NCBI GenBank assembly: GCA_934098515.1
Contig: CAKOOK010000001.1
Location: 89,076-153,075 of the forward strand
Origin: an uncultured Bacilli bacterium
GTDB taxonomy: Bacteria > Bacillota_I > Bacilli_A > RF39 > UBA660
Reading direction: 5' to 3'
DNA: 64,000 bases
Made by a program: the position numbers and the translations under genes. Under the pieces are notes generated by a model. That model worked only from the letters and a program-made list of their open reading frames with translations, was not told where the DNA came from and searched no databases. Positions 33,163-59,160 of this stretch are shown here, piece by piece (position 1 is the stretch's first letter; the number at the start of each line of letters is the position of its first letter).

Positions 33163-33190
33163 AAAAGAACCTTTGTGGTTCTTTTAATTT
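33161..33190. terminator. Bidirectional rho-independent terminator between convergent genes
   Basis: AAGAACC-TTTGT-GGTTCTT is flanked by an A-run on one side and a T-run on the other. Confidence 0.7.
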
Positions 33191-33942
33191 TGTTTCCATT
33201 TTGCTGTTAGAATGATATTTGAAGTAACTGGAGTATTAAAGTCATATTCTTTATTATTATAGTACCAACCTAGGAATGTATATCCTTCTTTTGTAGGTGT
33301 TTGTGGTTTAGTTGCTTTTTCGCCTAGTTTTAATGTTTGAGTTGGAATGCTTGCTGCTTTGCCTGTATCAAATACAACATAATATTTCTTTTCTTTAGTA
33401 ATAACTTTTGTTATGTATTCCACTTTCTTGGTTGTAGCCGGTCTTTGATTGTTTGATGCATTATTTGAATTAGTATTTGCTTTTTTTGTAGTTGCTACTT
33501 TTTTAGTAGTAGTTGTTGTTGTTTCACTACATTTTGTTTCATCGCATGATGTTTTATATACATAAATAGTTTCTTCTTCATTACCACATTTTAAGTATAC
33601 TTCTACTTCATATTCATTACCATTTTTAGTTGCTTCAATATAACTATTTTCTTCGTCACAATCTTTACCTTTAGAGTCTTGTAATTTGCTAATTTTACCA
33701 GATATAATTAAATCATTTAATGTAACTACTTTAGTATCATTTTCTTTTTCTGGTAGATTTTTATTTTGGAAATAACTAATACTTACATCTTTTAGTTTAG
33801 TAATGTTACTCGTGAAGCTTTCACTTCTATTTTTTTGCTTTGTAGGTAATAATTTAATTACTAATATTACTACTAAAATAATTATTGCAAATTTAAGTAA
33901 GAATCCTTTCCAGTCAAATTTAATTTTTGTTTCTTCGTACAT
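33184..33942 (-). CDS. Membrane-anchored surface protein with a C-terminal Listeria-Bacteroides (Flg_new) repeat
   Basis: TM anchor, pilin-like VVTLNDLIISGKISKLQD..YLKCG, Thr-rich linker, then YYVVFDTGKAASIPTQTLKLGEKATKPQTPTKEGYTFLGWYYNNKEYDFNTPVTSNIILTAKW. Confidence 0.6.
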   Translation of the reverse strand: MYEETKIKFDWKGFLLKFAIIILVVILVIKLLPTKQKNRSESFTSNITKLKDVSISYFQNKNLPEKENDTKVVTLNDLIISGKISKLQDSKGKDCDEENSYIEATKNGNEYEVEVYLKCGNEEETIYVYKTSCDETKCSETTTTTTKKVATTKKANTNSNNASNNQRPATTKKVEYITKVITKEKKYYVVFDTGKAASIPTQTLKLGEKATKPQTPTKEGYTFLGWYYNNKEYDFNTPVTSNIILTAKWKQN

Positions 33943-34016
33943 GTTCTCCCCTGCTTTCTATAAGACCTTTCTTATATGACTTATGATAGCAGAATTGTAT
34001 TTAAAAAGCAAGAATA

Positions 34017-34751
34017 TTATCCTTGCTCATTAAATTTTTTTAGTTTGTTTAATTCTTCTAGGTAGTCACTTTTTCGAAGGTGCTCTAGTGTTACATCAAC
34101 TTGTTTATTTGCTTTAACTTCGTCTATTTGTGATGTATTATTGCTTATTTTACCTACCGTTTTTTTGTTATATACTAGTTTGGCAATTTTTATAATATCA
34201 TAGATAATAACACCTAGTGCTGGTAATAGAACTACAATAAACCATCCCATTTTGGTAGCAATAAATCCTTGAATTTTACCAACACCTGGCAATTTGATAG
34301 CTACTTTACCAATTATGTCATCATATTTAGCAGTAGCACTATCTGCTGATGGATTAAAGTCACCTTTGGTAACATATTCGTAGGAGCCATCATCGTTTTT
34401 AATTATATTAATAACACGGTGAGTAACAGTTAATCCTTTACTAATTGAACTAGTAGAACTAAATGTTATTACGTCACCTACTTTAATAGATTCTGGTGAT
34501 TTTACTCTGATGTTTACAATTACATCATCGACTTTAATGTTGGGTTCCATTGAACCAGTCGCTATGTTATATAATGAAAATAAAGGTTTATATTCAGGAT
34601 TTTTAATAACTACTCTAGCTGCTATTACATAGTAAATTAAAAACATACCAATTATAATTAGTAGGATTAAGACTGCTGTAGATAGAAGTTTACCAACGTA
34701 AGTTAAGGCATTTTTTATTTTAATATAAGTTGATTTTTCTACTTGATCCAT
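34017..34751 (-). CDS. sipW: Signal peptidase I, SipW (ER/archaeal) type, paralogue 1
   Basis: TM segment then ATGSMEPNIKVDDVI..GDVITF..VTHRV..TKGDFNPSAD and a C-terminal TM segment, the SipW-type Ser/His layout. Confidence 0.8.
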   Translation of the reverse strand: MDQVEKSTYIKIKNALTYVGKLLSTAVLILLIIIGMFLIYYVIAARVVIKNPEYKPLFSLYNIATGSMEPNIKVDDVIVNIRVKSPESIKVGDVITFSSTSSISKGLTVTHRVINIIKNDDGSYEYVTKGDFNPSADSATAKYDDIIGKVAIKLPGVGKIQGFIATKMGWFIVVLLPALGVIIYDIIKIAKLVYNKKTVGKISNNTSQIDEVKANKQVDVTLEHLRKSDYLEELNKLKKFNEQG

Positions 34752-34855
34752 AACTCACCTTCTTACTCTATTTCTACATTTATTATATAAAATCTTTTAT
34801 TAAAGTTCAAGGAGTTTACTTCTATTTTTGTAAAGAAGTATTTTTTAATAACAAA

Positions 34856-34876
34856 ATAAAAAAGCCCGAAGGCTAA
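34856..34876 (-). terminator. Terminator after the TasA-like gene pair
   Basis: Minus strand AGCC-UUCG-GGCU (UUCG tetraloop) followed by UUUUUAUUUU. Confidence 0.55.
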
Positions 34877-34886
34877 TTTTATATTA

Positions 34887-35558
34887 TTACTTTGTAATTT
34901 CAGCTGTTCCGATTTCAACCTTAGCACCAAATACTTTGTTTTTATCAATATCTTGGTTAACATGGTTATCTGGGAAATAGATGTTTAAATCATATTGATG
35001 AACAGTGTCTGTTCCTGGTAAGAAATATCCTGAACCTATTGCTGTAGCTTCAGCAGCTCCAGTTTTAACATCAACCCAAGTTGCAACTTGTGCTAATTCA
35101 CCTGTAGCAGCTTCTCCGCCTTTTTTAGTACCAACTAATGTATACTTAATTGCGCCAGTTGAAAATTCATTTTTAGTAACTATTAATTTAATAGTATATG
35201 GCATTTTCATATTATCTGATGCTAAAGTTGAGTTAGTACCAGTTAATGTGAATTTTTTAGTTGCTACTGGAGAATATTGAGCTTGGTCACAGTAATATCC
35301 AGCAGTTTCACTAACTTTTTTATCTGGGCATTCTACTGCAGCCTTTGTTGGTTCAAATCCTTCTGTAGTTTGAACAGTATTACCATTAGCAAAGTTAATC
35401 TTTAAAACACCTGCATTCATTTTAACTGTAGTTGCACTTTCGCCACCACCAACTTGAGCAGTGAAGTATGCGAATGTTGCTCCGATAACAGCTACTAATA
35501 GAGTTGCTACACCAATAACAGTTAATAGTAATGTATTAGTTTTTGAATTATCTTTCAT
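34887..35558 (-). CDS. TasA/camelysin-like SipW-dependent secreted protein (Ala/Gly/Thr-rich, probable fibre subunit)
   Basis: Start moved to ATG 35558 (GGAGGA RBS). Signal ..LLVAVIGATFAYFTAQ. C-terminal YDLNIYFPDNHVNQDIDKNKVFGAKVEIGTAEI. One Cys pair. Confidence 0.7.
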   Translation of the reverse strand: MKDNSKTNTLLLTVIGVATLLVAVIGATFAYFTAQVGGGESATTVKMNAGVLKINFANGNTVQTTEGFEPTKAAVECPDKKVSETAGYYCDQAQYSPVATKKFTLTGTNSTLASDNMKMPYTIKLIVTKNEFSTGAIKYTLVGTKKGGEAATGELAQVATWVDVKTGAAEATAIGSGYFLPGTDTVHQYDLNIYFPDNHVNQDIDKNKVFGAKVEIGTAEITK

Positions 35559-35578
35559 ATGTCCTCCTTCTATCAATT

Positions 35579-36202
35579 TTATTGTGTAATTTCAGTAATT
35601 GCAATGTGTCCTTTAAATTGAGCACCTTGGTTAGCGTTTTGATCTTCACCAGTATCTTTAAAGAACATTGATAATGTGTAAGTTTGAGTTACTTCTTGTG
35701 CATCATTACCATAAATAGTTGCTTCACCAAATACGATGTCCTTTGATGGGTCAGCAATTTTTGTTTCAGTAGCAGTAGGCATTGTACCTTTTGTAGAAGC
35801 ATTTGCTTCTGTAGCAGTTAGTGTATATGATAATGCACTTGCTTGGAATCTCTTAACATGTCCAGCACCATCAGATATAGTTGCGTCTGCAGTTGTATCA
35901 TTATCATCAATTACAAGAGTAATTTTGTACTTTGTAGACACGCCTTTAGTAGCAGTTGTTTTAATTGAGAATGTTTTTGTTCCCCAAGCTTCTGCTTTAG
36001 GATAAATTCCGGCAGCAGCTATTTGATCTCCACCATTAAACTCTGTTCCAACTGTTGCTGATCTAACTGTGTATTCTTTTTCATTTTCGGTACCAGATAA
36101 TGTTGCACTGAAGTAAGCAAATGTTGCTCCAACTACGGCAATTAATAGTGTTGCAATACCGATGATAGTTAGCATTACAGTATTATTTTTCCCTTCGCTC
36201 AT
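35579..36202 (-). CDS. TasA/camelysin-like SipW-dependent secreted protein, tandem paralogue
   Basis: Signal ..LLIAVVGATFAYFSAT. C-terminal YTLSMFFKDTGEDQNANQGAQFKGHIAITEITQ. RBS AAGGAGGATACAAAAATG. Confidence 0.7.
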   Translation of the reverse strand: MSEGKNNTVMLTIIGIATLLIAVVGATFAYFSATLSGTENEKEYTVRSATVGTEFNGGDQIAAAGIYPKAEAWGTKTFSIKTTATKGVSTKYKITLVIDDNDTTADATISDGAGHVKRFQASALSYTLTATEANASTKGTMPTATETKIADPSKDIVFGEATIYGNDAQEVTQTYTLSMFFKDTGEDQNANQGAQFKGHIAITEITQ

Positions 36203-36457: not shown

Positions 36458-37042
36458 ATGTTAATTAAAAAGAAATTTAGATTGTTACTTGCTTTAATTG
36501 CGTTGTTTATTTGCCTTTCTTCTATTGAGAAAACTTATGCAAAGTATATTACTTCTGCTTCTGGTAATACTGATGTCACTATTTCTAGATGGAATATAAA
36601 GTTAAATGATTTTGATATTACAAATGGTTCTAATTTTACTAATGCTATTGTTCCTACTTTTAATGGTGATGAGTATACTTCTGCTGGTATTATTGCTCCA
36701 AGGTCTGAAGGAAGTTTTTCAATTAGTATTGATGGTTCTGAGACAGATACTGCTTATTCTTTAGATTTTGATATTGGTATTAGTGATGATAGTGCGGTTA
36801 AGGATTTGGTTATTACTAAGTATACGATTGGTGATGATCCTACTGAATATAATTATGATGGTAATTTAGTTACTAATTTTAATTTAGATGATAATAAGAT
36901 TATTACTTATAATTTCTTTATTAAGTGGAATGATGATGAAACTACTGAAACAATGACTAATGAGGATGATACTACTGCAGCTTATAATAGTGGTAAAGCT
37001 ATAATGAATGTAAATGTAAAAATAACACAATTAGCTAAGTGA
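36458..37042 (+). CDS. TasA/camelysin-like SipW-dependent secreted protein (only plus-strand member)
   Basis: Signal ..LSSIEKTYAKYITSASG. It ends ..AYNSGKAIMNVNVKITQLAK with a TGA stop. Confidence 0.65.
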   Translation: MLIKKKFRLLLALIALFICLSSIEKTYAKYITSASGNTDVTISRWNIKLNDFDITNGSNFTNAIVPTFNGDEYTSAGIIAPRSEGSFSISIDGSETDTAYSLDFDIGISDDSAVKDLVITKYTIGDDPTEYNYDGNLVTNFNLDDNKIITYNFFIKWNDDETTETMTNEDDTTAAYNSGKAIMNVNVKITQLAK

Positions 37043-37055
37043 TTGTGTTATTTTT
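37018..37055. terminator. 14-bp perfect inverted repeat forming a bidirectional terminator across two overlapping convergent gene ends
   Basis: AAAAATAACACAAT-N10-ATTGTGTTATTTTT. Both stop codons lie at the edges of or inside the loop. Each arm encodes KITQ for its own gene. Confidence 0.65.
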
Positions 37056-37720
37056 AATTCTATTATAATTTTTAGTCCAGGTTCGTTTGGATGGTTTCGT
37101 TTGTAATTATATGCGTCGGTTCCCCATTTTGTGTCTAAAGCGTCGTTTCCTGATTCATAGGCCCAGTTCATTTTTACATTGAATGCGGCTTCACCACCAT
37201 AGGGGTCTAGTTGGTTATTAGATGTTATTAATTCAATTTTAAATGGGTATTTAGTTCCATCTTTTAATGAGTTTTCAAGTTCTTCACTTGTTGGATTATC
37301 TTCTGTGGGGGTACCTCCATCTGAGATTATTTTTTCACTTGTAATTATTTCGTTACCAAAGGCGTTTATGGATAGAATTGTGTATTTGAAGTCTGCTTTT
37401 GATTCACCTTGGTTGTATACTTTTGTTTCGTTTAGGAATTCTTCCATTCCTGGGTATGCAGATTTAATATCAACGTTTAATGTGCTTATAACTTCACTTT
37501 CAGAGTTTGTTAATACTACGTTCCAAGCTCTTACTTTTACATTAATGTCTGTATGTACTTCTTTTACGTAAACAAACCATGCAAAGGTATTTGCTGAAAG
37601 AATTATAATTAGAAAAATAAGATTTTTAGGTTTAATTGATTTTTTTAATAATCTTAGAAAAACTTTTCTTCTTATTTTTCTTTCAGTTATATCATTCTTG
37701 TTCTTCGTCATCATTGTCAT
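37031..37720 (-). CDS. TasA/camelysin-like SipW-dependent secreted protein
   Basis: Basic N-region, signal ..IIILSANTFAWFVYV. It ends ..GLKIIIELKITQSLS. It overlaps the sipW paralogue 2 stop. Confidence 0.6.
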   Translation of the reverse strand: MTMMTKNKNDITERKIRRKVFLRLLKKSIKPKNLIFLIIILSANTFAWFVYVKEVHTDINVKVRAWNVVLTNSESEVISTLNVDIKSAYPGMEEFLNETKVYNQGESKADFKYTILSINAFGNEIITSEKIISDGGTPTEDNPTSEELENSLKDGTKYPFKIELITSNNQLDPYGGEAAFNVKMNWAYESGNDALDTKWGTDAYNYKRNHPNEPGLKIIIELKITQSLS

Positions 37721-38258
37721 ATATTATTTTTACAACTTGAATAGATACTAGTAATCCCATTATAGTTGCAAGAATGTAGTATGCGTATATATTTAACATT
37801 ACTCTACTTAGAAGACTTAAGAAACCCATTTTATACACTATTTTTCCGTATATTTGGTCTTCGTTTATTTCTGGGTCTGCGATTTCATTAGCAGTTCCTT
37901 TTGTTGTGAAGTAATATTTACCATTTTCTTCTCTTACTTCAATAACTTTGTGTGTTACGATTAGACCAGTCATATCACCTTTTTCGCCTTTGTATACGAC
38001 GTTATCCCCTACTTTGATTGTTTCGGGAGCTACTTCTTTTGATACTAACATATCGCCTTCAACGTATTCTGGTTTCATTGAGCCAGTTACGACAGTGAAT
38101 ATTTTGATGCCACCCAGTGAGAGGTCATTTCTTGATACTTTTTGTACTAAGATTACGAATAATAAACCAATTAGGATTATATATAAAATGGTTTTAATTA
38201 TTTTACTAATTATGTTTAGTACTTTATTTTCTTTTATTTTTTTTATAAATTGTTTCAT
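37692..38258 (-). CDS. sipW: Signal peptidase I, SipW type, paralogue 2
   Basis: VVTGSMKPEYVEGDML..GDNVVY..VTHKV..TKGTANEIAD and a C-terminal TM segment. Confidence 0.8.
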   Translation of the reverse strand: MKQFIKKIKENKVLNIISKIIKTILYIILIGLLFVILVQKVSRNDLSLGGIKIFTVVTGSMKPEYVEGDMLVSKEVAPETIKVGDNVVYKGEKGDMTGLIVTHKVIEVREENGKYYFTTKGTANEIADPEINEDQIYGKIVYKMGFLSLLSRVMLNIYAYYILATIMGLLVSIQVVKIIYDNDDEEQE

Positions 38259-38265: not shown

Positions 38266-39390
38266 CTAAAATCTATAGCTTTCTATTTTGTCTAAATATT
38301 GTCTTATTTTAATATCATATTTACTTTGAATTTCAGCAATTGATGCTTCTTTTTTATTTCTGATTACGGCGATTTTGTCACCAATTATTTCTTCTAGTTT
38401 TGTCATTGGTAGGTCGGAGTTTAGTTCGACTATTTTGGTGATCATTTCATCAGTTATTTCTTCTATTTTTTGTCTTCGGTCTTCCTCAGTTATTTTGTCT
38501 TTAGATTTACCAGTACTATTAAGAACTAGGTACTGCAGAAGAATTGCATTATCTAAGAGGCTTTGAAGTTCGGGGTTATCTTTGATTGTTGCTTTACTTT
38601 TTACACTTTTTGATGATATTTTTTCGTTGTATGATTGAAGATAATCCCATAGTTTTGTAGCATATTGAAAGTTTGGATTTTTTAAAATTAGATTTGTTTT
38701 TTTAATTGGTGGTACTACTTTTGCTACGTGAAGTTTTGCTAGTGTTTTAAATACATCGCTTTTTTTAAGGTCTGATACTTTGTCTTCTACTTTTTTAATT
38801 CTTGCTAGTAGTTCGGTTTCTTCTTGTTTAGTAGATTCTTTGGTAAAGACTCTTGAGTTGATGTTTAGACTAAAAGCAACGTTTTCACCACCTACTCTAC
38901 TACTTCCACTATATTCACAATTTTTATAGTCTTTTAATGATGATGATAAGATTAGTTTCTTTTTTCTCATCATAATGAATTGTTCTGTGTTTAAGACGAG
39001 TGTGTAGATAAATCTATTTTCGTATGTGTTGTAACTTTCTTCTTTATTAATGTTTAATATTTTTGATGGCTTAACGTCACCATTTTCTTCAATTTCTTGG
39101 ATGAAGTTAGTATGTTTTGATAGATGTTTAATGCTTTCAACGGTTATCTTTCTAGCTTTTTCGATTTGAACAACTTCTTCTTCATTTACGATGAAGCGGT
39201 TAGGACTTCTTAGGATGTTGTCTAGGTATCTAACAGTTTCTTCAATAATGGTTAGCCATTCAAAGTCGACGTCATTTTTTTCGTAGTTGGTTTCAATAGT
39301 GTAGTTTGAGTTTACGTTAGCGTTAAATTCATCTATTTTCTTTTTGTTACTAGTATCATATAGTTCAAATATTTTTAAATCCCTTTTCAT
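38266..39390 (-). CDS. McrC N-terminal/DUF2357-like protein without a recognisable nuclease domain
   Basis: 374 aa and cytoplasmic. ESYNTYENRFIYTLVLNTEQFI resembles the (D/T)xYENRF motif of DUF2357/McrC-like partners of McrB NTPases. The C-terminal half is helical with no PD-(D/E)xK pattern. It begins 8 nt after the AAA+ gene. Confidence 0.45.
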   Translation of the reverse strand: MKRDLKIFELYDTSNKKKIDEFNANVNSNYTIETNYEKNDVDFEWLTIIEETVRYLDNILRSPNRFIVNEEEVVQIEKARKITVESIKHLSKHTNFIQEIEENGDVKPSKILNINKEESYNTYENRFIYTLVLNTEQFIMMRKKKLILSSSLKDYKNCEYSGSSRVGGENVAFSLNINSRVFTKESTKQEETELLARIKKVEDKVSDLKKSDVFKTLAKLHVAKVVPPIKKTNLILKNPNFQYATKLWDYLQSYNEKISSKSVKSKATIKDNPELQSLLDNAILLQYLVLNSTGKSKDKITEEDRRQKIEEITDEMITKIVELNSDLPMTKLEEIIGDKIAVIRNKKEASIAEIQSKYDIKIRQYLDKIESYRF

Positions 39391-42873: not shown

Positions 42874-42902
42874 TTAAAAAAAGAGATTATAATTATCTCT
42901 TA
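42874..42902 (-). terminator. Internal terminator/attenuator after the 192-aa TasA-like gene
   Basis: Minus strand AAGAGAU-AAUUAUA-AUCUCUU followed by UUUUUUAAUU. Confidence 0.6.
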
Positions 42903-44148: not shown

Positions 44149-44164
44149 TTTATCCCTTCTTTTC

Positions 44165-46940: not shown

Positions 46941-46941
46941 T

Positions 46942-50000: not shown

Positions 50001-53000
50001 TCCTCCACCAAATAATGAGCAATTTGCTTTTTTACTGCATGAAGTTGAACCAATTGTAGTTGTTCCACTTACTGTTATATTGGTGTTTTCGTTTACGATT
50101 GCTGGTGAACCATTACCTCCTCCGTAGGCTGATCCTTGGACTGTTCCATTGGTAATACTTACAAATGTACTTTTTAGAACTTCACCAAAGTTTCCACCAC
50201 CATAAATGTTATTTGTTATTTGACCGCCAGAAATATTTAAGTTCGTATTATTTATAATATTGGCAGCGTTTCCTCCTCCGTAGATGTTGTAAGTAGTGCC
50301 GCCGGTAACTGTAACTTTTGGATTATTTACATCGGCTTCGTTACCTCCACCATATACTTCAAAGGCATAACCATTTTTAATGTTAACGTTGGCATTATTT
50401 GTTAAACCACCCTTGTTGTTTCCTCCATATATTTTAAATCCGGTGTTTGTACTAGTTAAGTCTTCTTCTATTTCATTTTTTCCAGTAATTTTGTACTCAG
50501 ATGTAAAGTATGTGTTTTCTTGTAAAATAGTAAAATTAAAGGTATAAGAACTTCCAGGGGCAAGTTCATGGTTACTTTGAGTATTCCACCTTCCTGCACT
50601 TGTGAATGTATATTTTTCATTGTTGTCTATAACGTCTGTGTCTGATGAGTAATTATTATATAGTTTTGATTTAGGAATATTTATTGTTCCTTCCCAAGAT
50701 TTGATTGTTTTATCAGAATTATTTTTAATTTCTACATTTACGGTTACAACTTGATTAAAATTAGTACCATAATTTGTTTTTTCCCAGTCTGTTATAGTTC
50801 TTGATGATGGTGTAATAATTGCTTCTAGGCTGTTATCTTGATTTTGTGTATTTGAACTACCATTAAGTGTTATGTTACTTTCTTGGACTGTTCCTGTTTC
50901 GTTTGATCCACCAAAGGCTTTACTTATGGTTCCACCATTTATGATTACATTTGTTTTTCCGGATACTCCGGCGTTATTTCCCCCACCATAAGCATTATTT
51001 ACTGTTCCGTTATTTATAGTAAGGTTAGCATTTTGGGTTTCAATTTTATTTCCTCCACCAAAGATTCCTTCAGTAATTTTACCACCTGTCATGATTACGT
51101 TTGTCTTTTCACAGGTACCACCTAAGTTGTTGCCGCCAAAAGCATAATTAGCATTTCCACTTTCAATGTATACGTTTGTTAGATTAACTAAACCGCTTTG
51201 ATTAGAGCCACCATAGATATAGTCAACTTGGGCACCTTTAAGATAGATGTTGGTGTTTGTTTGGGATGTGTTTTTTCCTCCACCAAATGCTTGTCCAATA
51301 ATGCCACCATTTAAGTATACAATGTCTTCATTTTCTGGGGTTCCGTTTGCATCAAAGCCTCCATAGACGTTTGCTATTGTTCCACCATTTATGTTTACTG
51401 TTATTTTCCCTTTGACTTTTGGTGTACTTGATGCATCACCTTTTGCACCGCCAAATACGTCGCCTGTTATATTTCCATTATTAACTGTTACATTTACTGT
51501 TTTGGAGTTGGTTGATTCACTCGCGGTTGTTGCATTTACTGTTCCAAAGGCAGAGCCACCATAGACGTTTCCACTTATATTAGGTCCTTCTTCTTGGGTG
51601 CCAATGGTAACATCAATATTATCTCTTACAAATGTATTTTGCCCTTCTCCCCCACCATATACGGATGATACTTTACCATTTTTAATGTTAAGTTCTGTGC
51701 TTCCATAAACAATTCCGGTAATATTTGAACCACCATAAATACCATTTTTTACGTTTCCACCAGTCATATTTATTTTTATTTGTGAGTTAATATTAAAAAA
51801 TTCTATTTTTGTTTGATACCATCCACTTCCAGATGTTATTGTGTGTGCATAATTACCAGCTCCGTTGTTGTTTCCGGCACCATATACAGAACCATTGATT
51901 GTTCCACCTGCTAAGAGTATCTCTGTATTTGATGGATTATACGTTTTTTTGTTACCATATCCAGTTGCTCCATAGTTTCCTCCGCCATAAACATTTTTCT
52001 TAATTGTAGCGTTTCCATCAATTACTATGTATGAGTTATTAACTGAACCTACTCCTACTGATGATGAGTTTCCATTTCCTGCACCGAATACACTGCCTGA
52101 TTCAACTTTTGATACTGTATGATTTATTTGAGAGTCATTGCCAATTGTTGCGTGTCCACCAATGTATACGTATGAGTCTCCATATAGAATTCCGGGATAT
52201 TGTCCACTGTCGGAACCCATTACACCATTTGAGCCGCCAAATACAGCGTATCCAACTGTGCCACCAGTTACTTGGATTATACGGTTTCCGTATGTACTTG
52301 AGGCTCCTGCTCCACCTACAATAATTGATGGTGTGCCTCCTTTAACATAAATGAAAGTGTCATTTAAAAATGTGTTACCATTTTTTACATTAGTTTCAAC
52401 TGATAAAGGGCCGCCAATTACATTTGCTTGTGTGCCGCCTTCAATAATTGCTTTTCTTAGTACATAATGGTTTCCGTTGTTTCTACCACCTACATAAAGA
52501 CCAGCTGCATAATCATAATTGTTTTTACCTATATTGCCACTTTTTACTGTTGTATTAAGTGCAATGGTTGATGTACTCGTGCTTCTTATTGTTGCTCCCC
52601 ATGATCCTGATGCGCAGTACTGAACTATGAAATTATTATTGTTATTAGTTACTCTGTCATAATCATTACCATATGTTCCATAAGCCATTACGTAGTGTGT
52701 TCCACTAGATGATGTGGTTGTTGTTAGACCAAGGTTATTGTAAAAACCTGATTCAACTATAAATGTATATCTTTTGACTGTGGTACCAGAAAATGAAGTT
52801 GAGCCTCCAGCTGCAGCATCAAATGATGCGTAATTATTATATTGAGTAATACCTCTACCAATTTTAAGATTGTAATAGTTTCCAAAAATAGTTCTGTTTG
52901 TATAAGGAGCATCATCTCCAGTTTGCATACTTTTTCCAGAGTTTATTCTTATCATTTCGATTCTTGTGTCTGCACCTATATTTAATGTATCAGATTGTTC

Positions 53001-55193
53001 CCAGTAATATCTATTTATATTATTTATTTGGTTATTTATTGCGGTTAATGTAAATGGTTTAGATTGATTAGACCATGCACCAGAGATATTACCTGTAACA
53101 AATGCTATATTGGTATCTCTTGTTACAAGGAAATAGTATTTAACTCCTTCTAAAACTTTTTCTAAGGTGCCATTTTCATTTTTGATTTTTATGAGTTCAT
53201 AATATTGGCATCCGTTTGTTTGATTACATGTACCTGTCGTAAGCATTTCAGCGTTGCTGTTATAGTATCCGTATAAAGCTTCTCCATATGGCAGAATTAC
53301 CTCTCTATATAGGCCTCCTGCTAAATCTCCTATGTTTACTTGTTCACTAGTTTCGTTTATGTGTTGTGGGGTTGTTTCATTAAATGAAGCTCCATACCAG
53401 CTTTCAGCTTTAGTATAATAAGTTCTTGTAGATGAATACTCGGTTCCTCTTGCGGGTCTCATTATGTCGCATCCACCATTATTACGACAGGTTGTATTGT
53501 TAGTTACTTCTTGCCAGCCGTACCATCCAGATTCTTGATAATCGCCTGCAATTATTTGTCCATTTCTCGGAACTCTTACTGAGTAATATAAATCGTCAAT
53601 TTCCCAGTACGATACTGTACCTCTTGCTAGTTTTAAGCCGGCATCAAAGAAGTAATTAAAAGCACTATTCCAATTGTTTCCAGAAATGTTATAGGTTCTT
53701 GCGTTTATCCACGAAGAATAAAAGGTTATTTCAATAGGATTTGGTTTCCCATTTTCATACGTTACTGGTATTCTTACTTTTCTTACATAAATATCTCGGT
53801 CTATCTCAATAGTTGCATTTGGATATTCTGTTAGCCAGCCATTAAATGCTTTATTAGCTGGTCTATTTGCAAATGGATTGTCTATTAAATCGAATTCAAC
53901 GAAGTCATCTGATGTATCTTCTGTGCCATTAGTATTTATTTCGTAGATTTTGTAATAAATATATGTATCTTGTTCTTCTGTAAGTGATACTTTTCCTATA
54001 TTTTGATTGTTATAGTCAGCGCCTTTATATGTTGCTGCTACGTAGACTAAGTTATTTTCACTATATATTTCTTTTAAAATTCTTGTGGGAATTGTTTGAT
54101 TAGAACTACTTGTGTAGTTTAGTCCCATGTAGTAATCATAGTCTGCAAGAAAGTCATTAACATATACAATATTATTTTCAATACCACTTTCATGAGATGT
54201 TATGCCAGCCGTTTCATTTGTTAGTGCAATCTCATCAATTCCATTGTTCATTAGTCTTATCGTATTATTCGCATAAGTCCATGTGAAATTTGAATTCTTA
54301 TTTAGAATGTTTATAATACTCTTAACTGGATATTGATTTTCAAAAGTGATGATGTTATCAGTCTTGTTATAACCATAAGATGTTATGTTTGATGACTCGG
54401 CGTTATTAAATAAATTTAGGTTATTAATATGATAAATAATATTTGACACTTGACTATTGTTATAATTATTAATTAAGATAGCTGAATTTGAATTAGAATC
54501 GTTCAAGTCTACATGAATATTGCTTATGTTATTATTTTGCTTATCATTTATTAATAGTCCTGCTGATTGTGTTTCATAATTTTCATCTTCACTTATGTTG
54601 TATTTTATATTACTAAGGGAGATGTTATTTAAGGTACTATTTGCTACATTAGTAGCAAGAGCTGATATTGTACGTTTTTGGTTTACTTTATTTGCCGCTA
54701 TTTTAAGATTTGTGATGTTTAAATTTTTGATGTTTGCACCATTAAGATTTGAAAAAAGTGAATATTCACATGTAGCAGTTTCTTCGTTGCTACTGCAGTT
54801 ATTAAAATTTAAATTAGATAGTGTGTATCCATTTCCGTTGATGGTTCCACTAAATGTTTTGCTAGTTTCTATAAATGAAAAGTCTCTATTATCAAAATCT
54901 ATATTATTTTTTATTTCATAAAATTTATTAAAATATGATGAAGAATCTTCACTTTTTAATTTATTAAATAGGAGGGCAAACTCTGAACCCTCAGTTATTA
55001 TATACGGATTAGACTCGCTTCCATCTCCATCTTGAAAAGATGTTGCTATACTTCCATCCCATATACTTGATGTTAATTTTTCACTGAATGTTGGATAAAG
55101 TTTAATTGCCGCAAAAACAATAGTGAAGATTGTTAAAATTGCTACTAATGAAATGAATAAATTTTTTTTATTTTTTATACGCAATGCCCTCAT
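47061..55193 (-). CDS. Giant secreted beta-helix surface protein (2,710 aa from ATG 55193)
   Basis: N-terminal TM/signal segment. GSESNPYIITEGSEF..FSGTINGNGYTLSNLNF adhesin-type N-domain. Dozens of (V/I/A)(Y/F)GG(G/S)N repeats. An inserted beta-sandwich domain. C-terminal Ig-like modules. The track start (TTG 55211) is less likely than the ATG preceded by GGAG. Confidence 0.8.
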   Translation of the reverse strand: MRALRIKNKKNLFISLVAILTIFTIVFAAIKLYPTFSEKLTSSIWDGSIATSFQDGDGSESNPYIITEGSEFALLFNKLKSEDSSSYFNKFYEIKNNIDFDNRDFSFIETSKTFSGTINGNGYTLSNLNFNNCSSNEETATCEYSLFSNLNGANIKNLNITNLKIAANKVNQKRTISALATNVANSTLNNISLSNIKYNISEDENYETQSAGLLINDKQNNNISNIHVDLNDSNSNSAILINNYNNSQVSNIIYHINNLNLFNNAESSNITSYGYNKTDNIITFENQYPVKSIINILNKNSNFTWTYANNTIRLMNNGIDEIALTNETAGITSHESGIENNIVYVNDFLADYDYYMGLNYTSSSNQTIPTRILKEIYSENNLVYVAATYKGADYNNQNIGKVSLTEEQDTYIYYKIYEINTNGTEDTSDDFVEFDLIDNPFANRPANKAFNGWLTEYPNATIEIDRDIYVRKVRIPVTYENGKPNPIEITFYSSWINARTYNISGNNWNSAFNYFFDAGLKLARGTVSYWEIDDLYYSVRVPRNGQIIAGDYQESGWYGWQEVTNNTTCRNNGGCDIMRPARGTEYSSTRTYYTKAESWYGASFNETTPQHINETSEQVNIGDLAGGLYREVILPYGEALYGYYNSNAEMLTTGTCNQTNGCQYYELIKIKNENGTLEKVLEGVKYYFLVTRDTNIAFVTGNISGAWSNQSKPFTLTAINNQINNINRYYWEQSDTLNIGADTRIEMIRINSGKSMQTGDDAPYTNRTIFGNYYNLKIGRGITQYNNYASFDAAAGGSTSFSGTTVKRYTFIVESGFYNNLGLTTTTSSSGTHYVMAYGTYGNDYDRVTNNNNNFIVQYCASGSWGATIRSTSTSTIALNTTVKSGNIGKNNYDYAAGLYVGGRNNGNHYVLRKAIIEGGTQANVIGGPLSVETNVKNGNTFLNDTFIYVKGGTPSIIVGGAGASSTYGNRIIQVTGGTVGYAVFGGSNGVMGSDSGQYPGILYGDSYVYIGGHATIGNDSQINHTVSKVESGSVFGAGNGNSSSVGVGSVNNSYIVIDGNATIKKNVYGGGNYGATGYGNKKTYNPSNTEILLAGGTINGSVYGAGNNNGAGNYAHTITSGSGWYQTKIEFFNINSQIKINMTGGNVKNGIYGGSNITGIVYGSTELNIKNGKVSSVYGGGEGQNTFVRDNIDVTIGTQEEGPNISGNVYGGSAFGTVNATTASESTNSKTVNVTVNNGNITGDVFGGAKGDASSTPKVKGKITVNINGGTIANVYGGFDANGTPENEDIVYLNGGIIGQAFGGGKNTSQTNTNIYLKGAQVDYIYGGSNQSGLVNLTNVYIESGNANYAFGGNNLGGTCEKTNVIMTGGKITEGIFGGGNKIETQNANLTINNGTVNNAYGGGNNAGVSGKTNVIINGGTISKAFGGSNETGTVQESNITLNGSSNTQNQDNSLEAIITPSSRTITDWEKTNYGTNFNQVVTVNVEIKNNSDKTIKSWEGTINIPKSKLYNNYSSDTDVIDNNEKYTFTSAGRWNTQSNHELAPGSSYTFNFTILQENTYFTSEYKITGKNEIEEDLTSTNTGFKIYGGNNKGGLTNNANVNIKNGYAFEVYGGGNEADVNNPKVTVTGGTTYNIYGGGNAANIINNTNLNISGGQITNNIYGGGNFGEVLKSTFVSITNGTVQGSAYGGGNGSPAIVNENTNITVSGTTTIGSTSCSKKANCSLFGGGNAAATGKDGTSKSTVNLAGGHIYGNVYGGANTSVVKGDAIVNVANSAVSESTVKAPITLDGTIFGGGEANASGSDTYDYSFISVTKSITVNLDATDFSDINIKGSIFGSGNASSSSGTSKINITKFGSDENPKKITSIQRTDILNINNSGMILIGATDRTNEYSDTLFTLSIIGKLNLKNNSSLYLESGTNLLQEFNSLVDDSTLAEVVIDEETGSYTRNVDNRIYALEGVKAINIAKGETIDETATDYGEVNGMTFFGLYTYNSSGHVNAGIYKKSIQNGDDLNWGDMPTQGSYVLGLHKANHDITKDGFYSNFMNEETSKNKANYITPTPENSDFYMWIIGELVVEYNIDLSASKYSTLGIKEVSFYDFADPNTNFEILGFDYSNLKEGVSLVEREDVPRIAATTADADNIMSLKMETGSTGWINRGETVLLSKEPSIIGDKKYIGENSNSVPTLAFYLYHSKNLGTTDEMGKVSIVVMAIRRIDGLTSEAKRIVINVNLSRVLYNTNDYEGAITSGRKYEIFPSTAVDITDKSSISAYFSLYKDGENVYKDGDNRSLVSTSVLPLHTKITMIDLSKTTPEYYYHTINEDDVTRAEAEIASHGDVSYPLSSFETMGALNSNVYYNNGSNSADYYHPDKNTSSEEFIFILDFEDTNIQADMLNNHLILELKDKQGETRISILGNQYDVMSYDIYTGKDAIIDIDGTISKNTIYSGEDFKLDLETAYTQSKSGSTIINDTKLLDYKLGIKISLIDENGNAVSGTSMMGLYYEIDGNKYYPNLDGTTRIKISEKIGNVKTWITVNTANSNIPTGSYTLKIDSYGSPDGIYYGLNPSDTLEIPINYINEKYGLDIKIDNKDLIINKETGTNIDGNSTLEFTIKYNSVFENPSLNMKLYRRSYNEVYDTNYELVDLQEYLDMTLIKKNGSDNEYIVSSNPSDNTKLRLDLKNNLLNGTYKLEFILYDNNSKIGTVEKYIIIK
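49650..52450 (-). repeat. Periodic coding repeats (about 19-22 aa) with a hydrophobic-(Y/F)GGGN core, parallel beta-helix type
   Basis: VYGGGNYGATG, VYGAGNNNGAG, IYGGSNITG, VYGGGEGQN, AFGGGKNTS, IYGGSNQSG, AYGGGNNAG, IYGGGNAAN, AYGGGNGSP, LFGGGNAAA, IFGGGEANA, IFGSGNASS and others. Confidence 0.75.
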
Positions 55194-55255
55194 ATTTTTT
55201 ACTCCATCCAATTATACTACCATTATAACATTTAGGCTCGGTAAATACAATAAAA

Positions 55256-55312: not shown

Positions 55313-56290
55313 TTATGCTGCGGTTGCATTTTGGCTTAATGCAATATTTAATGAAATACCAGTACCAGAAGCATTATTTTCACAGTCAACGTCTTGACCT
55401 TCAACCCAGAAATAAATTCTCATTTTCGTAATACCAGTTTTTAATGAGAAAATAGCAGTATATGATGTTGGGGTTGCAAGTGTTCCAATTGTATCAACTT
55501 TTACGTAATTCTCATCTTCATATGTTAATTCTTTTTTTTCTACTGCTGCTTTTACGCCCTTATAATCTAATTTATTATTTCCCGGTGCTGCAGTTAAACT
55601 GTTGATTCCGTATACTGTGCTAGCTTGTGTTACACCATAACTTGTATGATCATCATAATTTGGTTCCCAAACAACAACGTCAGTTGCAGTTGCTCCATTT
55701 AAAGCATATACTGTATCTATGGCTGCATCTGCTGGTTTATTTCCTTCATTTACGAATGCTATACGAGAAGCATTTTTTAATCCTTTTTCTTCACTAGTTG
55801 CTTCTTTTGTAACATTTGCTGATGTTGTTAGATAAATTTGACCTGCTGTTTCTGTTTTAAAGAATACGTCAAAAGCAACATAGTTTCCAGAAGTTCCGTT
55901 TGCTTCATTAACAGCTTTGGTTGTACTTAATTTTAGTACTCCACCATCACTTGTTACTTCACCGTCGTACATATCAAGTGCGCCTGCTTCTGTTTCATCC
56001 ATAGTTTTACCAGTTGTTGTATTTGTTATTGTTCCAGGCATTTGGTTTTTTACGCCTTTCCATGTAGCGCTCGTTAAATCAACATTAGTAAGAGTTGTTT
56101 TCCAATTAGTTGCATCTGCTGATATTAATAAACCAGAACTTGTAGTTACTTTAACATCAATGCCTTCGATAGATACATTTTTATTTGATGTGAACCATGC
56201 ATAGGTTGATGTTCCTAGTAATACTACTGAAAGTAATAGTAATAATATAAGTGAAGATAATTTCTTCTGTTTTTTTCTTTTATTCTTCAT
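55313..56290 (-). CDS. TasA-like SipW-dependent secreted protein (325 aa), candidate abundant subunit
   Basis: Start moved to ATG 56290 (GGAG RBS). Signal ..VVLLGTSTYAWFTSNKN. Ala/Thr/Gly-rich body. C-terminal MRIYFWVEGQDVDCENNASGTGISLNIALSQ. Confidence 0.65.
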   Translation of the reverse strand: MKNKRKKQKKLSSLILLLLLSVVLLGTSTYAWFTSNKNVSIEGIDVKVTTSSGLLISADATNWKTTLTNVDLTSATWKGVKNQMPGTITNTTTGKTMDETEAGALDMYDGEVTSDGGVLKLSTTKAVNEANGTSGNYVAFDVFFKTETAGQIYLTTSANVTKEATSEEKGLKNASRIAFVNEGNKPADAAIDTVYALNGATATDVVVWEPNYDDHTSYGVTQASTVYGINSLTAAPGNNKLDYKGVKAAVEKKELTYEDENYVKVDTIGTLATPTSYTAIFSLKTGITKMRIYFWVEGQDVDCENNASGTGISLNIALSQNATAA

Positions 56291-56308
56291 AATACACTCC
56301 AAACAATT

Positions 56309-57004
56309 TTATTCTCTTATATGATCTTCTGTAATGTCCATGTGCATTTTTACTTCTCCACCGAGTAGTGAATTAGTACATTCTGGGTCGTCTCCTTCAA
56401 TCCAAATAACTATTGTGAATTTATCTAGTTCATAAGGTTCAATATTTTCCCTCTTTTGCAATATTATTGTACCATCTTCGTCTTTAAGAAAAGCTGTTGT
56501 TCCTGTCTCTGGTTGTCCATCCGTTGCGCTTTCTTTGGCATAAACGACTTTTTCGTCATTTCGATATATCATTACTCTGATTGCTTCATCTGCATCTTTG
56601 ATGACATCATCCATGACCATTTTGTACCAATAATTAGTTGCTTCAGTGCCTTGATTTTCAACATAAAATGTATAAGCTATGTAGTTATCACCATTATGTG
56701 AACCATCAGATTCATTGTTGATATTTTGTGGCAACCATTTTATTGATATATTCGTCATAAATCTAGAACCATCAGCAAACAATCTTCTTTTTGAGTGTGG
56801 ATCATTTACGCTTTCATAGATTACTATGCTGCTGTTGTCTCCATCATTATATATACTTAGAGTTCCTCTTTGAAAGATGGATACAAGTACTAAATAAACG
56901 ACTATAAGTACAAATAGCAATGCAATTAAGGATATTTTAACAATACGCTTGAATTCACGCCATTTTTTGATTCTATCCGCAGTTTTGATTACTTCTTTTG
57001 CCAT
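56309..57004 (-). CDS. Membrane-anchored protein sharing the C-terminal domain of the 325-aa TasA-like protein
   Basis: Cytoplasmic basic N-terminus then one TM segment. C-terminal FTIVIWIEGDDPECTNSLLGGEVKMHMDI parallels IYFWVEGQDVDCENNASGTGISLNIAL. It is the first gene after the promoter. Confidence 0.55.
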   Translation of the reverse strand: MAKEVIKTADRIKKWREFKRIVKISLIALLFVLIVVYLVLVSIFQRGTLSIYNDGDNSSIVIYESVNDPHSKRRLFADGSRFMTNISIKWLPQNINNESDGSHNGDNYIAYTFYVENQGTEATNYWYKMVMDDVIKDADEAIRVMIYRNDEKVVYAKESATDGQPETGTTAFLKDEDGTIILQKRENIEPYELDKFTIVIWIEGDDPECTNSLLGGEVKMHMDITEDHIRE

Positions 57005-57066
57005 AATTCCTCCTCAATCCTGCTAGATATACACATGATAGATTACACTCCCTACCATACAATGTC

Positions 57067-57095
57067 ATTATATTATAGTTTTTTGAGAAAAGCAA
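57067..57095 (-). promoter_or_regulatory. Sigma-A promoter candidate for the fibre operon
   Basis: Minus strand TTGCTT-N17-TATAAT, a ~55-nt leader, then RBS TGAGGAGGAATTATG. Confidence 0.45.
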
Positions 57096-57125
57096 TATAT
57101 TTTGTCGAAATATGTATTTTTTTTA

Positions 57126-58508
57126 TTATAGTTTTTTAGATTTAGAAATGTAAAAATAAAATTTTGTTCCTTTGTTTTTTGTGCTTTCAACACCGTACTT
57201 GAAATTATGTTTTACAAGAATATTTTGAACTATAGATAATCCCAAGCCTGTTCCTACTACGTTTCGTTTATGATTTTTTTCGTCTTTATAATATTTAGTC
57301 CAGATTTGTTTAATGTCATTTTTATCGATGCCTTTCCCAGTGTCGATTACTTCAACTAGATAATTATTTCTATTTTCTGTAATATTTATTTTTACTGTTA
57401 AATCCTCGCCAGTATAATTTATTGCGTTATTTATTAGGTTATATAAAACTTGATTTATTTTATTTTTATCTGCATGAACTACAGCAATTTCTGGTGCATT
57501 TAGGATTAGTTTGTAGTTTTCAGTTTCTTTAATTATTTGATATCTATTTAGAATTGATTTTACTTCTTCAACTAGGTCATAGTCTTCTAAGGTAAGTTCA
57601 TCTTTATTGTTTTCTAATTTTGATAAATTTAGGATATCGTTTACAAGAATGTTTAGTCTATCGGCTTCTTGAATAATTATACTTAGGTTTTCATTTCTTT
57701 TATCTTTGTCATTGTAGTTTATATCGCGTGCCATTTCAGCATATGCTTTAATCATGGTTAAGGGTGTTTTTAAATCATGGGATACGTTTGCCATTAGATC
57801 TTTCCTAAGTTCATCTGTGTTTTTAATTTCACTTTTAGCATAGTTTAAGGTTGTTGTTAGTTCGTCTAGTTCTTTGATATTGTATATTTCTTCATCAGGT
57901 TCATAATTTCCTTTTGCCATTTCTTTGGCCTTATTTGTAATTTTTAATATTGGTTTATTTAACATATCGGATACGAGAATTGACATTATGCCAGATAGAA
58001 TTATTACGATAAAAGTTATGTATATTAACTGACCACTTAAAACATTAGTTGTACTGTTAACGTCTTCTAGTTTAGTATTTAAAATTATATATATATTATC
58101 ATTTAATTTTAGACCGTATATAATACTTTTAGAATCATATCTTGGGTCGATTATTTTTATTAGACTTTTTTTAGATGTTCCTGTTATAATTTTATTTTTG
58201 GCATTTATGATTTTAGCGTTGTTTGAATTTAATATGCAGTCTTTATTTTGAGTGTTATAACCATATATTTTATCTCCATAGTAAACTTCAGCACACATAT
58301 CATTGTTGTAAATTTCTTCTTCTAAGTTTTCTAGATTATTTTCGGAAATTTTGGATGCAACTTCAATTATTTTGTTATACTGATATCTTTCAAAAAAAAT
58401 CTTTAAAAATACTATTTGAAACAGCCAAAGAAGAAGTAGGATTATTGCTGAGTATGAAAGTAAGTAAATGAAAGTTTTTTTTCTGATACTGTTACTCTTT
58501 GTATTCAA
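57126..58508 (-). CDS. Sensor histidine kinase (HisKA + HATPase_c) with a ~120-aa extracytoplasmic loop
   Basis: Two TM helices. H-box ANVSHDLKTPLTMIKAYAEM, N-box LYNLINNAINYT, G-boxes VIDTGKGI and GTGLGLSIV. Confidence 0.85.
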   Translation of the reverse strand: MNTKSNSIRKKTFIYLLSYSAIILLLLWLFQIVFLKIFFERYQYNKIIEVASKISENNLENLEEEIYNNDMCAEVYYGDKIYGYNTQNKDCILNSNNAKIINAKNKIITGTSKKSLIKIIDPRYDSKSIIYGLKLNDNIYIILNTKLEDVNSTTNVLSGQLIYITFIVIILSGIMSILVSDMLNKPILKITNKAKEMAKGNYEPDEEIYNIKELDELTTTLNYAKSEIKNTDELRKDLMANVSHDLKTPLTMIKAYAEMARDINYNDKDKRNENLSIIIQEADRLNILVNDILNLSKLENNKDELTLEDYDLVEEVKSILNRYQIIKETENYKLILNAPEIAVVHADKNKINQVLYNLINNAINYTGEDLTVKINITENRNNYLVEVIDTGKGIDKNDIKQIWTKYYKDEKNHKRNVVGTGLGLSIVQNILVKHNFKYGVESTKNKGTKFYFYISKSKKL

Positions 58509-59160
58509 ATTTATAGCCTACCTTTCTAATTGTTTTTATGTTATCACGGTAGTTTTTAAGCTTGCTTCTAAGAAGTTTGATATGAGCATCAATTGTGCGG
58601 TCATCGGCTTCATAGTCGTATCCCCATATTTTATTTATGATTACTTCTCTTGATAATGCTATATTAAGGTTAGTTAAAAATAATTTAAGAAGTTCAAATT
58701 GAGTATGAGTGAGTTCAATTATTTCGTCATTAATAGAGACCTCTCTTGTTAGGTTGTTTAGTTTGATTGTTCCAACTGAAATGATGTCCTCACCTTTTTG
58801 TCTTTTGGTAACTGCTTTGATTCTAGCAATTAATTCTTTTGGACTAAATGGTTTAATTACATAGTCATCGATTCCCAGATCAAAGCCATTAAGTTTGTCT
58901 TCTTCCATAGTACGTGCTGATAGCACTATTACGGGTATGTCTTTGATTTTTTTAATCTCTCTTATTGCACTAAAGCCATCTCTTTTTGGCATCATGATGT
59001 CCATAACGATAACGTTATAATCTTTTGACAAAGCTTTTTCGATTGCTGCATCGCCATCTTCTGCTTCATCCACTTCATAGTTTTCTAATTTTGCATATTC
59101 TTTTATTACGTTTCTGATTAGTTCTTCGTCGTCAACAATTAACAATTTCACTTTTATCAC
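58492..59160 (-). CDS. OmpR/PhoB-family response regulator
   Basis: Receiver LLIVDDE..VIVMDIMMPKRDG..K. Winged-helix C-terminus ..RTIDAHIKLLRSKL..IKTIRKVGYKF. The true start may be GTG 59151 (AAGGTGA RBS). Confidence 0.85.
   Translation of the reverse strand: MIKVKLLIVDDEELIRNVIKEYAKLENYEVDEAEDGDAAIEKALSKDYNVIVMDIMMPKRDGFSAIREIKKIKDIPVIVLSARTMEEDKLNGFDLGIDDYVIKPFSPKELIARIKAVTKRQKGEDIISVGTIKLNNLTREVSINDEIIELTHTQFELLKLFLTNLNIALSREVIINKIWGYDYEADDRTIDAHIKLLRSKLKNYRDNIKTIRKVGYKFEYKE

Follow-up and report, generated by a model that had tools for sequence, protein, structure and literature searches.

A McrB-family GTPase with an FtsB-like anchor, paired with signal-peptidase genes, was named CoCoPALM by Bell et al. 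(eLife 2024, PMC11090510), who deferred it to a later paper. Their description occupies one paragraph, with no gene-level account and no experiment; a literature search for the name returned only this article and its preprint, and the supplements of the paper hold no CoCoPALM content. The same article recounts that the DUF2357 partner of McrBC enters the hexamer and accelerates its GTP hydrolysis (PMC11090510). Among the proteins linked to SipW-type signal peptidases, TasA forms fibres through an N-terminal donor strand (PMC9674648), and the several secreted substrates of the Clostridium perfringens operon sipW-bsaABCRSD, which contains a two-component system (TCS), form very stable polymers (PMC7395162). 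SipA of Streptococcus pyogenes, a signal-peptidase-like protein of a pilus locus that lacks the catalytic residues, is essential for pilus polymerisation (PMC4049620). Described here is a locus of ~26 kb (33184-59160) within a stretch of 64,000 nucleotides from an uncultured Bacilli bacterium (contig CAKOOK010000001.1, positions 89,076 to 153,075; hereafter the window, ~30% G+C), in which a predicted membrane-tethered McrBC pair stands among SipW-type peptidases, their putative substrates and a giant surface protein. An initial annotation of the window had presented the locus as not described. The locus amounts to the rediscovery of a kind of system that was flagged and named in 2024 but not characterised, and a sipW operon with a TCS was already known in C. 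perfringens; the claim stands only in that the system is otherwise uncharacterised.

All ORFs (open reading frames, referred to by their lower coordinate) that had been named in the region are present, and all lie on the minus strand except 36458-37042(+). Transcription runs from a response regulator (58492) and a histidine kinase (57126) through 56309, 55313, the giant ORF (47061-55211), 45429, 44751, 44165, 43471, 42900, 41920, 40939, 39399, 38266, 37692 and 37031 to the convergent 36458(+), beyond which there is a divergent minus-strand set of 35579, 34887, 34017 and 33184. The inventory of the initial annotation, with several SipW paralogues, many proteins bearing SipW-type signals, a giant surface protein, a membrane nucleoside triphosphatase (NTPase) and cytoplasmic helical proteins, is thus found in full.

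At the centre of the locus are two genes for a GTPase and its partner. The 509-residue product of 39399..40928(-) was recognised as a membrane-anchored McrB-type AAA+ GTPase by a PDB profile search, PADLOC, its motifs and transmembrane (TM) prediction. From its conserved hydrophobic N-terminus the chain passes through a TM segment (residues 56-74) and a Pro-free charged helical stretch to an AAA+ domain whose motifs, GISGTGKT (Walker A), ILDEMN (Walker B) and GTINNDDS, are invariant in 10 homologues. E. coli McrB is the sole PDB match to the GTPase profile, with the Walker A, Walker B and signature motifs aligned (GTINNDDS vs GLMNTADRS), and the PADLOC candidate model PDC-M26A matches the core of the protein with an E value of 1e-31. 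The invariant signature N350-N351-D352-D353 reads as NxD followed by D, while a gap-free alignment to the NTAD of E. coli McrB also allows NxxD. Residues 57-132 give a weak FtsL-type (FtsL-like) match (E 0.007, 16 bits vs a cutoff of 55). The adjacent gene, 38266..39390(-), encodes a McrC-like partner of 374 residues with an N-terminal DUF2357 domain (Pfam, E 1.3e-13) and a helical C-terminal half, the only PDB resemblance of which is to a designed helical protein; a PDB profile search with the DUF2357 family gave nothing meaningful. Past residue 160 the family alignment contains no invariant acidic/Lys nuclease triad (D/E..K), and Pfam shows no nuclease or other effector domain in either protein. 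The canonical components of McrBC are therefore missing from both, 38266 having no PD-(D/E)xK nuclease and the GTPase a hydrophobic/TM N-terminus in place of a DNA reader. Given the McrB match, the TM segment, the DUF2357 domain and the lack of a conserved triad, the two gene products are assigned, from their sequences, as a membrane-tethered, nuclease-less McrBC pair.

The pair is embedded in a conserved gene order. ORFs were called in 84 fetched related loci and assigned to the window proteins by BLASTP; the resulting counts are lower bounds, since contigs end. DUF2357 is adjacent to the GTPase in 84/84 loci, and the SipW gene 37692 lies directly downstream of the two in 83. Next in frequency are 37031 (79/84), 41920 (75), 40939 (74), the SipW paralogue 44751 (68) and 36458 (67), then the giant protein (58, at most 10 kb from the GTPase), 55313 (57) and 56309 (48, with a median identity of 48%). 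The cassette 44165-43471-42900 is present or absent as a block (41-50 loci), and 45429 occurs in 21. At the other extreme, the histidine kinase is found in three loci, the response regulator in one, and 35579 and 34887 in one, that of the closest relative (L005), while 33184 has no counterpart in the 84. The GTPase, DUF2357, SipW and 37031 genes are adjacent in 79-84 of the loci, so that the GTPase module is genetically locked to the SipW peptidases and substrates. What may be called block A, 56309-55313-(45429)-giant gene, always adjoins block B, which runs from 44751 to 37031 plus 36458, and can stand on either side of it. The median identity of the GTPase is 69%, vs 29-48% for everything else. 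From these counts the conserved core extends over 36458-57004 (~20 kb), and the TCS and 33184-36202 are local additions. Overall, the locus is a composite of a conserved core, an optional duplicated cassette and a lineage-specific module of one sipW gene and two substrates. The view that this is a genuine multi-component envelope system rather than a chance juxtaposition is upheld by the order of the core genes, which is kept in the 84 related loci.

The system is widespread. More than 8000 90%-identity clusters of the GTPase were present among the candidates scored, and at least 577 matches, 64-92% identical, were obtained in GTDB contigs with one genome per species. All named records among the matches listed are metagenome-assembled genomes of uncultured bacteria, labelled as Bacilli, Tenericutes, Mollicutes, "Mycoplasma sp.", Erysipelotrichaceae, Clostridium sp. 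CAG:567 or Firmicutes bacterium CAG:884. Two of the records are complete chromosomes with the system, 1.26 and 1.55 Mb in length. We take the GTPase-bearing records to fall in the GTDB orders RF39 and RFN20. These orders are small-genome, uncultured relatives of the Mycoplasmatales (PMC10868615).

There are four SipW paralogues in the locus, and the initial annotation had counted them as four signal peptidase I genes. All four are SipW homologues. Three pass the model TIGR02228 (cutoff 51.85 bits), namely 34017 with 89.6 bits, 37692 with 85.6 and 43471 with 75.7; they keep the catalytic Ser and His motifs, (G/E)SM(E/K)P and THR, and are on this basis predicted to be active SipW-type enzymes. 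The active peptidase of the core is 37692..38258(-). The fourth, 44751..45362(-), also belongs to the core and has two TM segments. It aligns end to end with SipW models (NF046067, E 1.6e-4; another, E 1e-3), at 18.9-21.3 bits and so under every cutoff, and in this protein and all orthologues examined both the catalytic Ser (GSMEP to NKELRS) and the His (THR to NLG) are gone. Because the 44751 family has lost these two residues, the four paralogues would comprise three enzymes and one conserved pseudo-enzyme. Copy number varies further among the relatives: some relatives (loci L034, L046, L064 and L050) have an extra 55313-family gene and an extra dead SipW inside block B, and others (L056 and L081) have tandem extra SipW-like genes beside the giant gene. 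These extra copies indicate ongoing duplication of subunit-plus-peptidase units.

Nine ORFs of the window had been proposed to carry an N-terminal hydrophobic segment ending in [ST][YF][AS]x[YFL]. A regular-expression search of the 56 window ORFs of at least 120 residues confirmed this: the motif occurs 11 times, and nine of the occurrences directly follow an N-terminal hydrophobic segment, in exactly those nine ORFs. The variants are TFAYF (34887 and 35579), TYAKY (36458+), TFAWF (37031), TFSRY (41920), TYSKY (42900), SYALL (44165), TYAWF (55313) and SYAYF (61771). In NCBIfam, the model for the SipW-dependent-type signal (TIGR04088, cutoff 19) gives 18.6 bits for 35579, 18.3 for 55313 and 14.6 for 34887. 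Family alignments show no variation at positions +1 and +2 relative to the predicted cleavage site. A C-terminal strand ending in Q, the other shared feature that had been pointed out, is equally real: all aligned members of the 37031 family and of the 36458 family have this Q, and its conservation in the 42900/44165 set is at least 90%.

Two of these proteins are small subunits of the core and are predicted to be beta-sandwich proteins: 37031..37720(-), with a putative cleavage site TFA|WF, the ending ...KITQ and a family alignment in which A47, W48 and Q226 are invariant, and 36458..37042(+), with TYA|KY and the same ending, for which an alignment and an AlphaFold2 model are available. The two genes converge, 36458 running over the last 12 bp of 37031. 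In 67/67 loci that have a 36458-family gene it likewise lies on the other strand and converges, and so conserved an inversion hints that this subunit is regulated separately. Profile searching with 36458 gave 2525 50%-identity clusters at E<=1e-3. The optional cassette (42900..44764, minus strand), defined by synteny, hhalign and TIGR02228, consists of 44165, a paralogue of 36458 (hhalign E 1e-38), the active SipW 43471 and the small subunit 42900. All four small-subunit families (42900, 44165, 36458 and 37031) are mutually homologous, with hhalign probabilities of 95-98% over most of their length. Two larger core proteins, the 302-residue 41920..42828(-), with TFS|RY and conserved Cys residues in the family alignment, and 55313, have only their first 50-80 residues in common with these families (hhalign); Pfam, NCBIfam and PADLOC scans returned nothing for 41920. 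An orphan with the motif, 61771..62412(-) (SYA|YF), lies between the ZIP transporter gene and tsaD; it shows a weak likeness to 34887 (hhalign 36%) and has no homologue in the 84 related loci.

Two familiar kinds of pilus were considered for these proteins and rejected. The translations of the locus proteins contain no C-terminal LPXTG sorting signal, and a sortase-dependent pilus was rejected on that ground; no sortase was identified by Pfam among the window ORFs scanned. A type IV pilus, which has class III signals (G|F...E) cut by an A24 prepilin peptidase, a PilB-type ATPase and a PilC platform, was rejected for the position of the cleavage motif, after rather than before the hydrophobic segment, and for the lack of N_methyl (Pfam) matches among the locus proteins.

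The initial annotation had also placed the small proteins in the TasA/camelysin family, and for the core this is not supported. No window protein matches Pfam Peptidase_M73 (PF12389) at E<=0.01, and no match was seen at E<=1 in 59 members of the 42900 and 44165 families plus 35579, 34887 and 61771. The profile used for comparison combined B. subtilis TasA, the sequence of which was checked against PDB 8AUR and 5OF1 (100% identity), with six genes annotated "TasA family protein" from plasmids of the B. cereus group (PLSDB). Against this seven-member profile the core families reach hhalign probabilities of 0.3-9.8%, and against TasA alone they are likewise unsupported; their weak local matches to the profile do fall at topologically equivalent places. 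PDB sequence and profile searches with 35579 and the 36458 family returned nothing meaningful. AlphaFold2 monomer models were made for 36458 (mean confidence, pLDDT, 80.5) and 55313 (78.3). Both show an N-terminal TM helix, a low-confidence stretch at the motif (residues 28-39 in 36458) and then a beta-sandwich; a low-confidence segment after the predicted cleavage site is compatible with donor-strand exchange and proves nothing. With Foldseek, the model of 36458 resembles generic jelly-rolls (PNGase C-domain, GOLD, carbohydrate-binding modules, Cry domain III) at TM-scores of 0.24-0.31, and the best match of 55313, the Sulfolobus thread subunit 7pnb (E 0.049, probability 0.35, TM 0.19-0.30), is not significant and not evidence of homology. 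TasA (5of1, 8aur) is not present among the top 50 for either model. The core small proteins are thus, as far as the models go, SipW-signal beta-sandwich proteins of families of their own; they may be very distant analogues of TasA, and membership in its family is not supported. The exception is the separate homologous pair 35579 and 34887 (hhalign 97.5% to each other). Together with two orthologues from the closest relative, this group aligns to the TasA profile with 48% probability and E 2e-4 over 169 co-linear columns, including the camelysin C-terminal motif F.F.D.G.DQN..QG. Such a borderline alignment is suggestive of a camelysin-like pair, and does not prove it.

Block A includes the giant gene, 47061..55211(-), a core gene by synteny. 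The product had been reported as a 2,710-aa beta-helix protein; it is 2716 aa long if translated from TTG and 2710 aa from the first ATG, with an N-terminal TM segment. A G/N-rich repeat of ~24-26 aa recurs between residues 990 and 1800 and is read as a putative beta-solenoid; no Pfam, NCBIfam, PADLOC or PDB match was found. Upstream is 55313..56302(-), a core protein of 329 aa with the putative site TYA|WF (TIGR04088 18.3 bits; AlphaFold2), and next to it 56309..57004(-), a membrane-anchored core protein of 231 aa without the SipW motif, characterised by alignment and hhalign. The proposed likeness of their C-termini, a W(I/V)EG.D..C motif (WIEGDDPEC in 56309), is supported by hhalign at 76-83% and E ~1e-5; scans of Pfam, NCBIfam and PADLOC returned nothing for 56309. 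Two cytoplasmic proteins complete the set. The core gene 40939..41910(-) encodes 323 aa and, where present, is directly upstream of the GTPase gene; it has no TM segment and no Pfam, NCBIfam, PADLOC or PDB match. The variable 45429..46949(-), beside the giant gene, encodes a 506-aa helical protein, again with no TM segment and no match in Pfam, NCBIfam or PADLOC.

At the right-hand end of the locus an OmpR-type response regulator and a histidine kinase (57126..59160, minus strand; Pfam) adjoin the core. The initial annotation had included this pair in the system, with no terminator in between. Both identifications are correct, and a scan of the minus strand from the TCS to 56309 revealed no terminator-like site. 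The pair is beside the core in only 1-3 of the 84 loci, however, and is therefore a local neighbour and not a conserved part of the system. A promoter-like site is present at 57154-57125; promoter- and terminator-like sites in the region are no more frequent than in shuffled sequence, and the scan says little on operon structure. At the left-hand end, 34017..36202(-) is a lineage-specific accessory module (TIGR02228, hhalign), found among the 84 loci only in the closest relative, with one active SipW (34017) and the substrates 34887 and 35579. It is a separate sipW operon of the classical type, one peptidase with two substrates. The last gene, 33184..33942(-), encodes a membrane-anchored protein with a Listeria-Bacteroides repeat at its C-terminal end (Flg_new, Pfam, E 5e-14), and its membership in the system is doubtful. 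It is convergent with 32044-33162(+), another membrane-anchored protein; the N-terminal extracellular regions of the two are alike ("...NLP...V.L..LI..G..."), and neither has a homologue in the related loci.

The reading preferred here, with a probability of roughly 0.6, is that of a CoCoPALM-type system in which a membrane-anchored, nuclease-less, McrBC-derived GTPase apparatus processes, assembles or anchors a surface fibre and an adhesin. Six or more secreted proteins (families 36458/44165, 37031, 42900, 41920 and 55313) would be inserted by Sec, and the active SipW paralogues would cut them after T-[YF]-[AS], as in TasA (TWA|AF), exposing a conserved aromatic N-terminus. Outside the cell, the mature beta-sandwich subunits would then build a fibre or stalk, probably via the freed N-terminal strand as in donor-strand-exchange filaments, and the giant beta-solenoid protein would be carried or anchored by the fibre as adhesin or cargo. 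The membrane-anchored 56309, with its domain in common with 55313, is a possible base. The dead SipW 44751 may serve as a membrane chaperone or platform that holds or presents substrates. From the cytoplasmic side, a McrB-like ring with a McrC-like plug could provide GTP-dependent control or force through the TM/coiled-coil anchor, and 40939 and 45429 may act with the ring.

Several points weigh against this reading. The filament is so far a prediction from the genes. Foldseek relates the two modelled subunits to no solved fibre subunit (E values of at least 3e-4 for 36458 and at least 0.049 for 55313). The topology of the GTPase N-terminus is ambiguous, with one clear TM segment. Synteny was sampled in relatives with at least 64% GTPase identity, and the identity with CoCoPALM, being taken from a one-paragraph description without accessions, is inferred. 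Substrates of SipW are released from the membrane, so there is no obvious need for a cytoplasmic NTPase, and we know of no fibre system that uses a McrB-type GTPase. The purpose of a cytoplasmic GTPase for membrane-released substrates is both the main weakness of the model and its main point of interest.

The evidence can also be arranged in other ways. If the locus were an expanded but ordinary TasA/camelysin biofilm-matrix locus, with the NTPase genes accessory or unrelated, then the SipW genes, the TIGR04088-like signals and a C-terminal ...xQ strand resembling the FSFEATQ of TasA would all be expected, and the co-linear alignment of 34887/35579 (48%, E 2e-4) and the topologically equivalent local matches of the core families point the same way. 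Yet the Peptidase_M73 searches were negative for window proteins and family members alike, hhalign stays at or below 10% for all core families, TasA is outside the Foldseek top 50, and the GTPase/McrC pair, supposedly incidental, surpasses the rest of the locus in conservation and in tightness of linkage; such an explanation is improbable. Taking the pair as the starting point leads to the opposite suggestion, that it serves defence, as a CoCoNuT-like module of the type IV restriction kind whose place inside a surface-protein locus is incidental. McrB/McrC homology, the match to a PADLOC candidate-defence model and the dominance of defence-type systems in the NxD branch (PMC11090510) favour it. 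The pair, however, has no nuclease or other effector domain and a TM anchor in place of a nucleic-acid-binding domain, its position between 40939 and SipW is fixed in 84/84 loci, and an identity of 64-92% across at least 577 species looks vertical and housekeeping-type, not like a mobile defence island. With fixed synteny, vertical-type conservation and the nuclease missing, the defence-island reading is rejected as very improbable.

Closer to the preferred reading is a dedicated machine for export, anchoring or quality control of the giant beta-solenoid adhesin, in which the small proteins form a wall-spanning collar or base rather than a long fibre, and in which the FtsB-like anchor may target the division site. 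The giant gene does always adjoin the core, in either order, the domain shared by the membrane-anchored 56309 and 55313 suggests a pair of base and subunit, and the TM segment and helix of the GTPase are FtsL/FtsB-like. With its many and varied small subunits and its duplicated cassette of subunit and peptidase, the locus is closer in appearance to a pilin repertoire, and we consider an export machine unlikely, although no evidence here separates it from the fibre model. The preferred reading can also be extended: CoCoPALM would be a new class of nucleoside triphosphate (NTP)-coupled surface-filament machine, in which a membrane-tethered McrB ring and McrC plug of restriction-enzyme ancestry drive or gate the assembly (or retraction) of SipW-processed beta-sandwich subunits and the giant adhesin. 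This extension is offered tentatively, as a possibility with the odds against it.

Were it true, such a machine would be a core organelle with which a whole lineage of abundant, uncultured, small-genome Bacilli of gut and rumen holds on to its host, to food particles or to microbial partners. A restriction-type McrBC motor would for the first time be found in the service of cell-envelope or fibre biogenesis, and Gram-positive bacteria would have a further route of surface assembly, separate from those of sortase, type IV and classical TasA systems. The degree of conservation of the GTPase over so many species genomes marks a major function under selection. The finding itself holds and is of biological substance, without the TasA membership and the TCS linkage that had been attached to it, and the gene-level anatomy, with peptidases, substrates and their predicted cleavage site, a putative giant adhesin and a division into core and optional genes, makes the CoCoPALM prediction experimentally approachable.

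Housekeeping genes flank the locus, with cdaA, a YbbR-domain gene and DUF3048 on the left and YebC, patatin, a ZIP transporter, TsaD and RimI on the right, and an Rfam scan of the window found no RNA families. The window is rich in envelope proteins. At 7578-12723(-) there are two large surface proteins with cadherin-like beta-sandwich domains (378 and 1105 aa), separated by a small LPXTG-like protein (8802-9398), and 16084-18324(-) encodes a papain-family protease of 746 aa with a Big_2 domain. A CotZ-like spore-coat protein at 18468-18917(-) (E 3e-14) hints that the small-genome host may still sporulate. Among the few plus-strand genes is one for a ClpB/ClpC-type double-AAA chaperone (25681-27816), which coincides with a sharp excursion of the GC skew (+0.37) at 26-28 kb. 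A separate type IV pilus/competence-like set lies at 19354-22267(-). Encoded in it are a pilin with an N-terminal methylation motif (19354-19851), a prepilin peptidase of the A24 family (19861-20616) and a T2SSF/PilC-like platform protein of 547 aa (20624-22267). A gene for a phosphoglucosamine-mutase-like enzyme comes next, and none for a PilB-type ATPase adjoins the set. The sipW operon of C. perfringens is under the control of a type IV pilin (PMC7395162), and by analogy a functional link of this set with the SipW locus is conceivable.

The locus resembles several known systems in part. To our knowledge, the archaeal donor-strand filaments have no NTPase. What they share with the locus is beta-sandwich subunits and signal peptides that are not of type IV (AbpA, PMC9245690; Sulfolobus threads, 7pnb). 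The dead SipW 44751 is analogous to SipA, the role of 44751 being inferred only; SipA belongs to a sortase-dependent pilus, while the proteins of the SipW locus are without LPXTG. With E. coli McrBC the locus has in common an AAA+ GTPase with Walker A, Walker B and signature motifs and a DUF2357 partner, but the pair lacks the DNA-binding domain and the PD-(D/E)xK nuclease and is membrane-anchored and vertically conserved. The TasA operons (tapA-sipW-tasA of B. subtilis, sipW-tasA-calY of B. cereus) likewise place a dedicated archaeal-type signal peptidase beside secreted beta-rich proteins, whose signals end with T-[WYF]-A | x-[FY] and whose C-terminal strand has Q as its last residue. Unlike them, the core shows no Peptidase_M73 homology, and the locus adds a dead peptidase to its three active ones; it also has a GTPase/McrC module, a surface protein of 2.7 kaa (thousand amino acids), cytoplasmic proteins and no fewer than six families of substrates; only 34017-36202 has the classical layout. 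The C. perfringens operon is without a McrBC-like module, and its TCS is inside the operon and required for expression (PMC7395162).

The locus agrees with the description of CoCoPALM in having a McrB-family AAA+ GTPase (by PDB match, motifs and PDC-M26A), a McrC (DUF2357) homologue with a helical extension and no nuclease, adjacent in all 84 loci, and associated signal-peptidase-family genes, with SipW in 83 and the dead paralogue in 68 of them; the system is also found in Bacillota. The NxD signature of CoCoPALM is usually followed by D or E (PMC11090510), which the NNDD of the locus fits, with the NxxD alignment also possible. For the FtsB-like TM segment and coiled-coil of the description (PMC11090510), the GTPase has its TM segment at 56-74, the helical stretch and the weak FtsL-type match. 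Absent from that description, besides the mechanism, are the substrates, the dead peptidase, the giant protein, the cytoplasmic partners, the operon order and the host clade, all of which, for one clade, are supplied by the locus described here.

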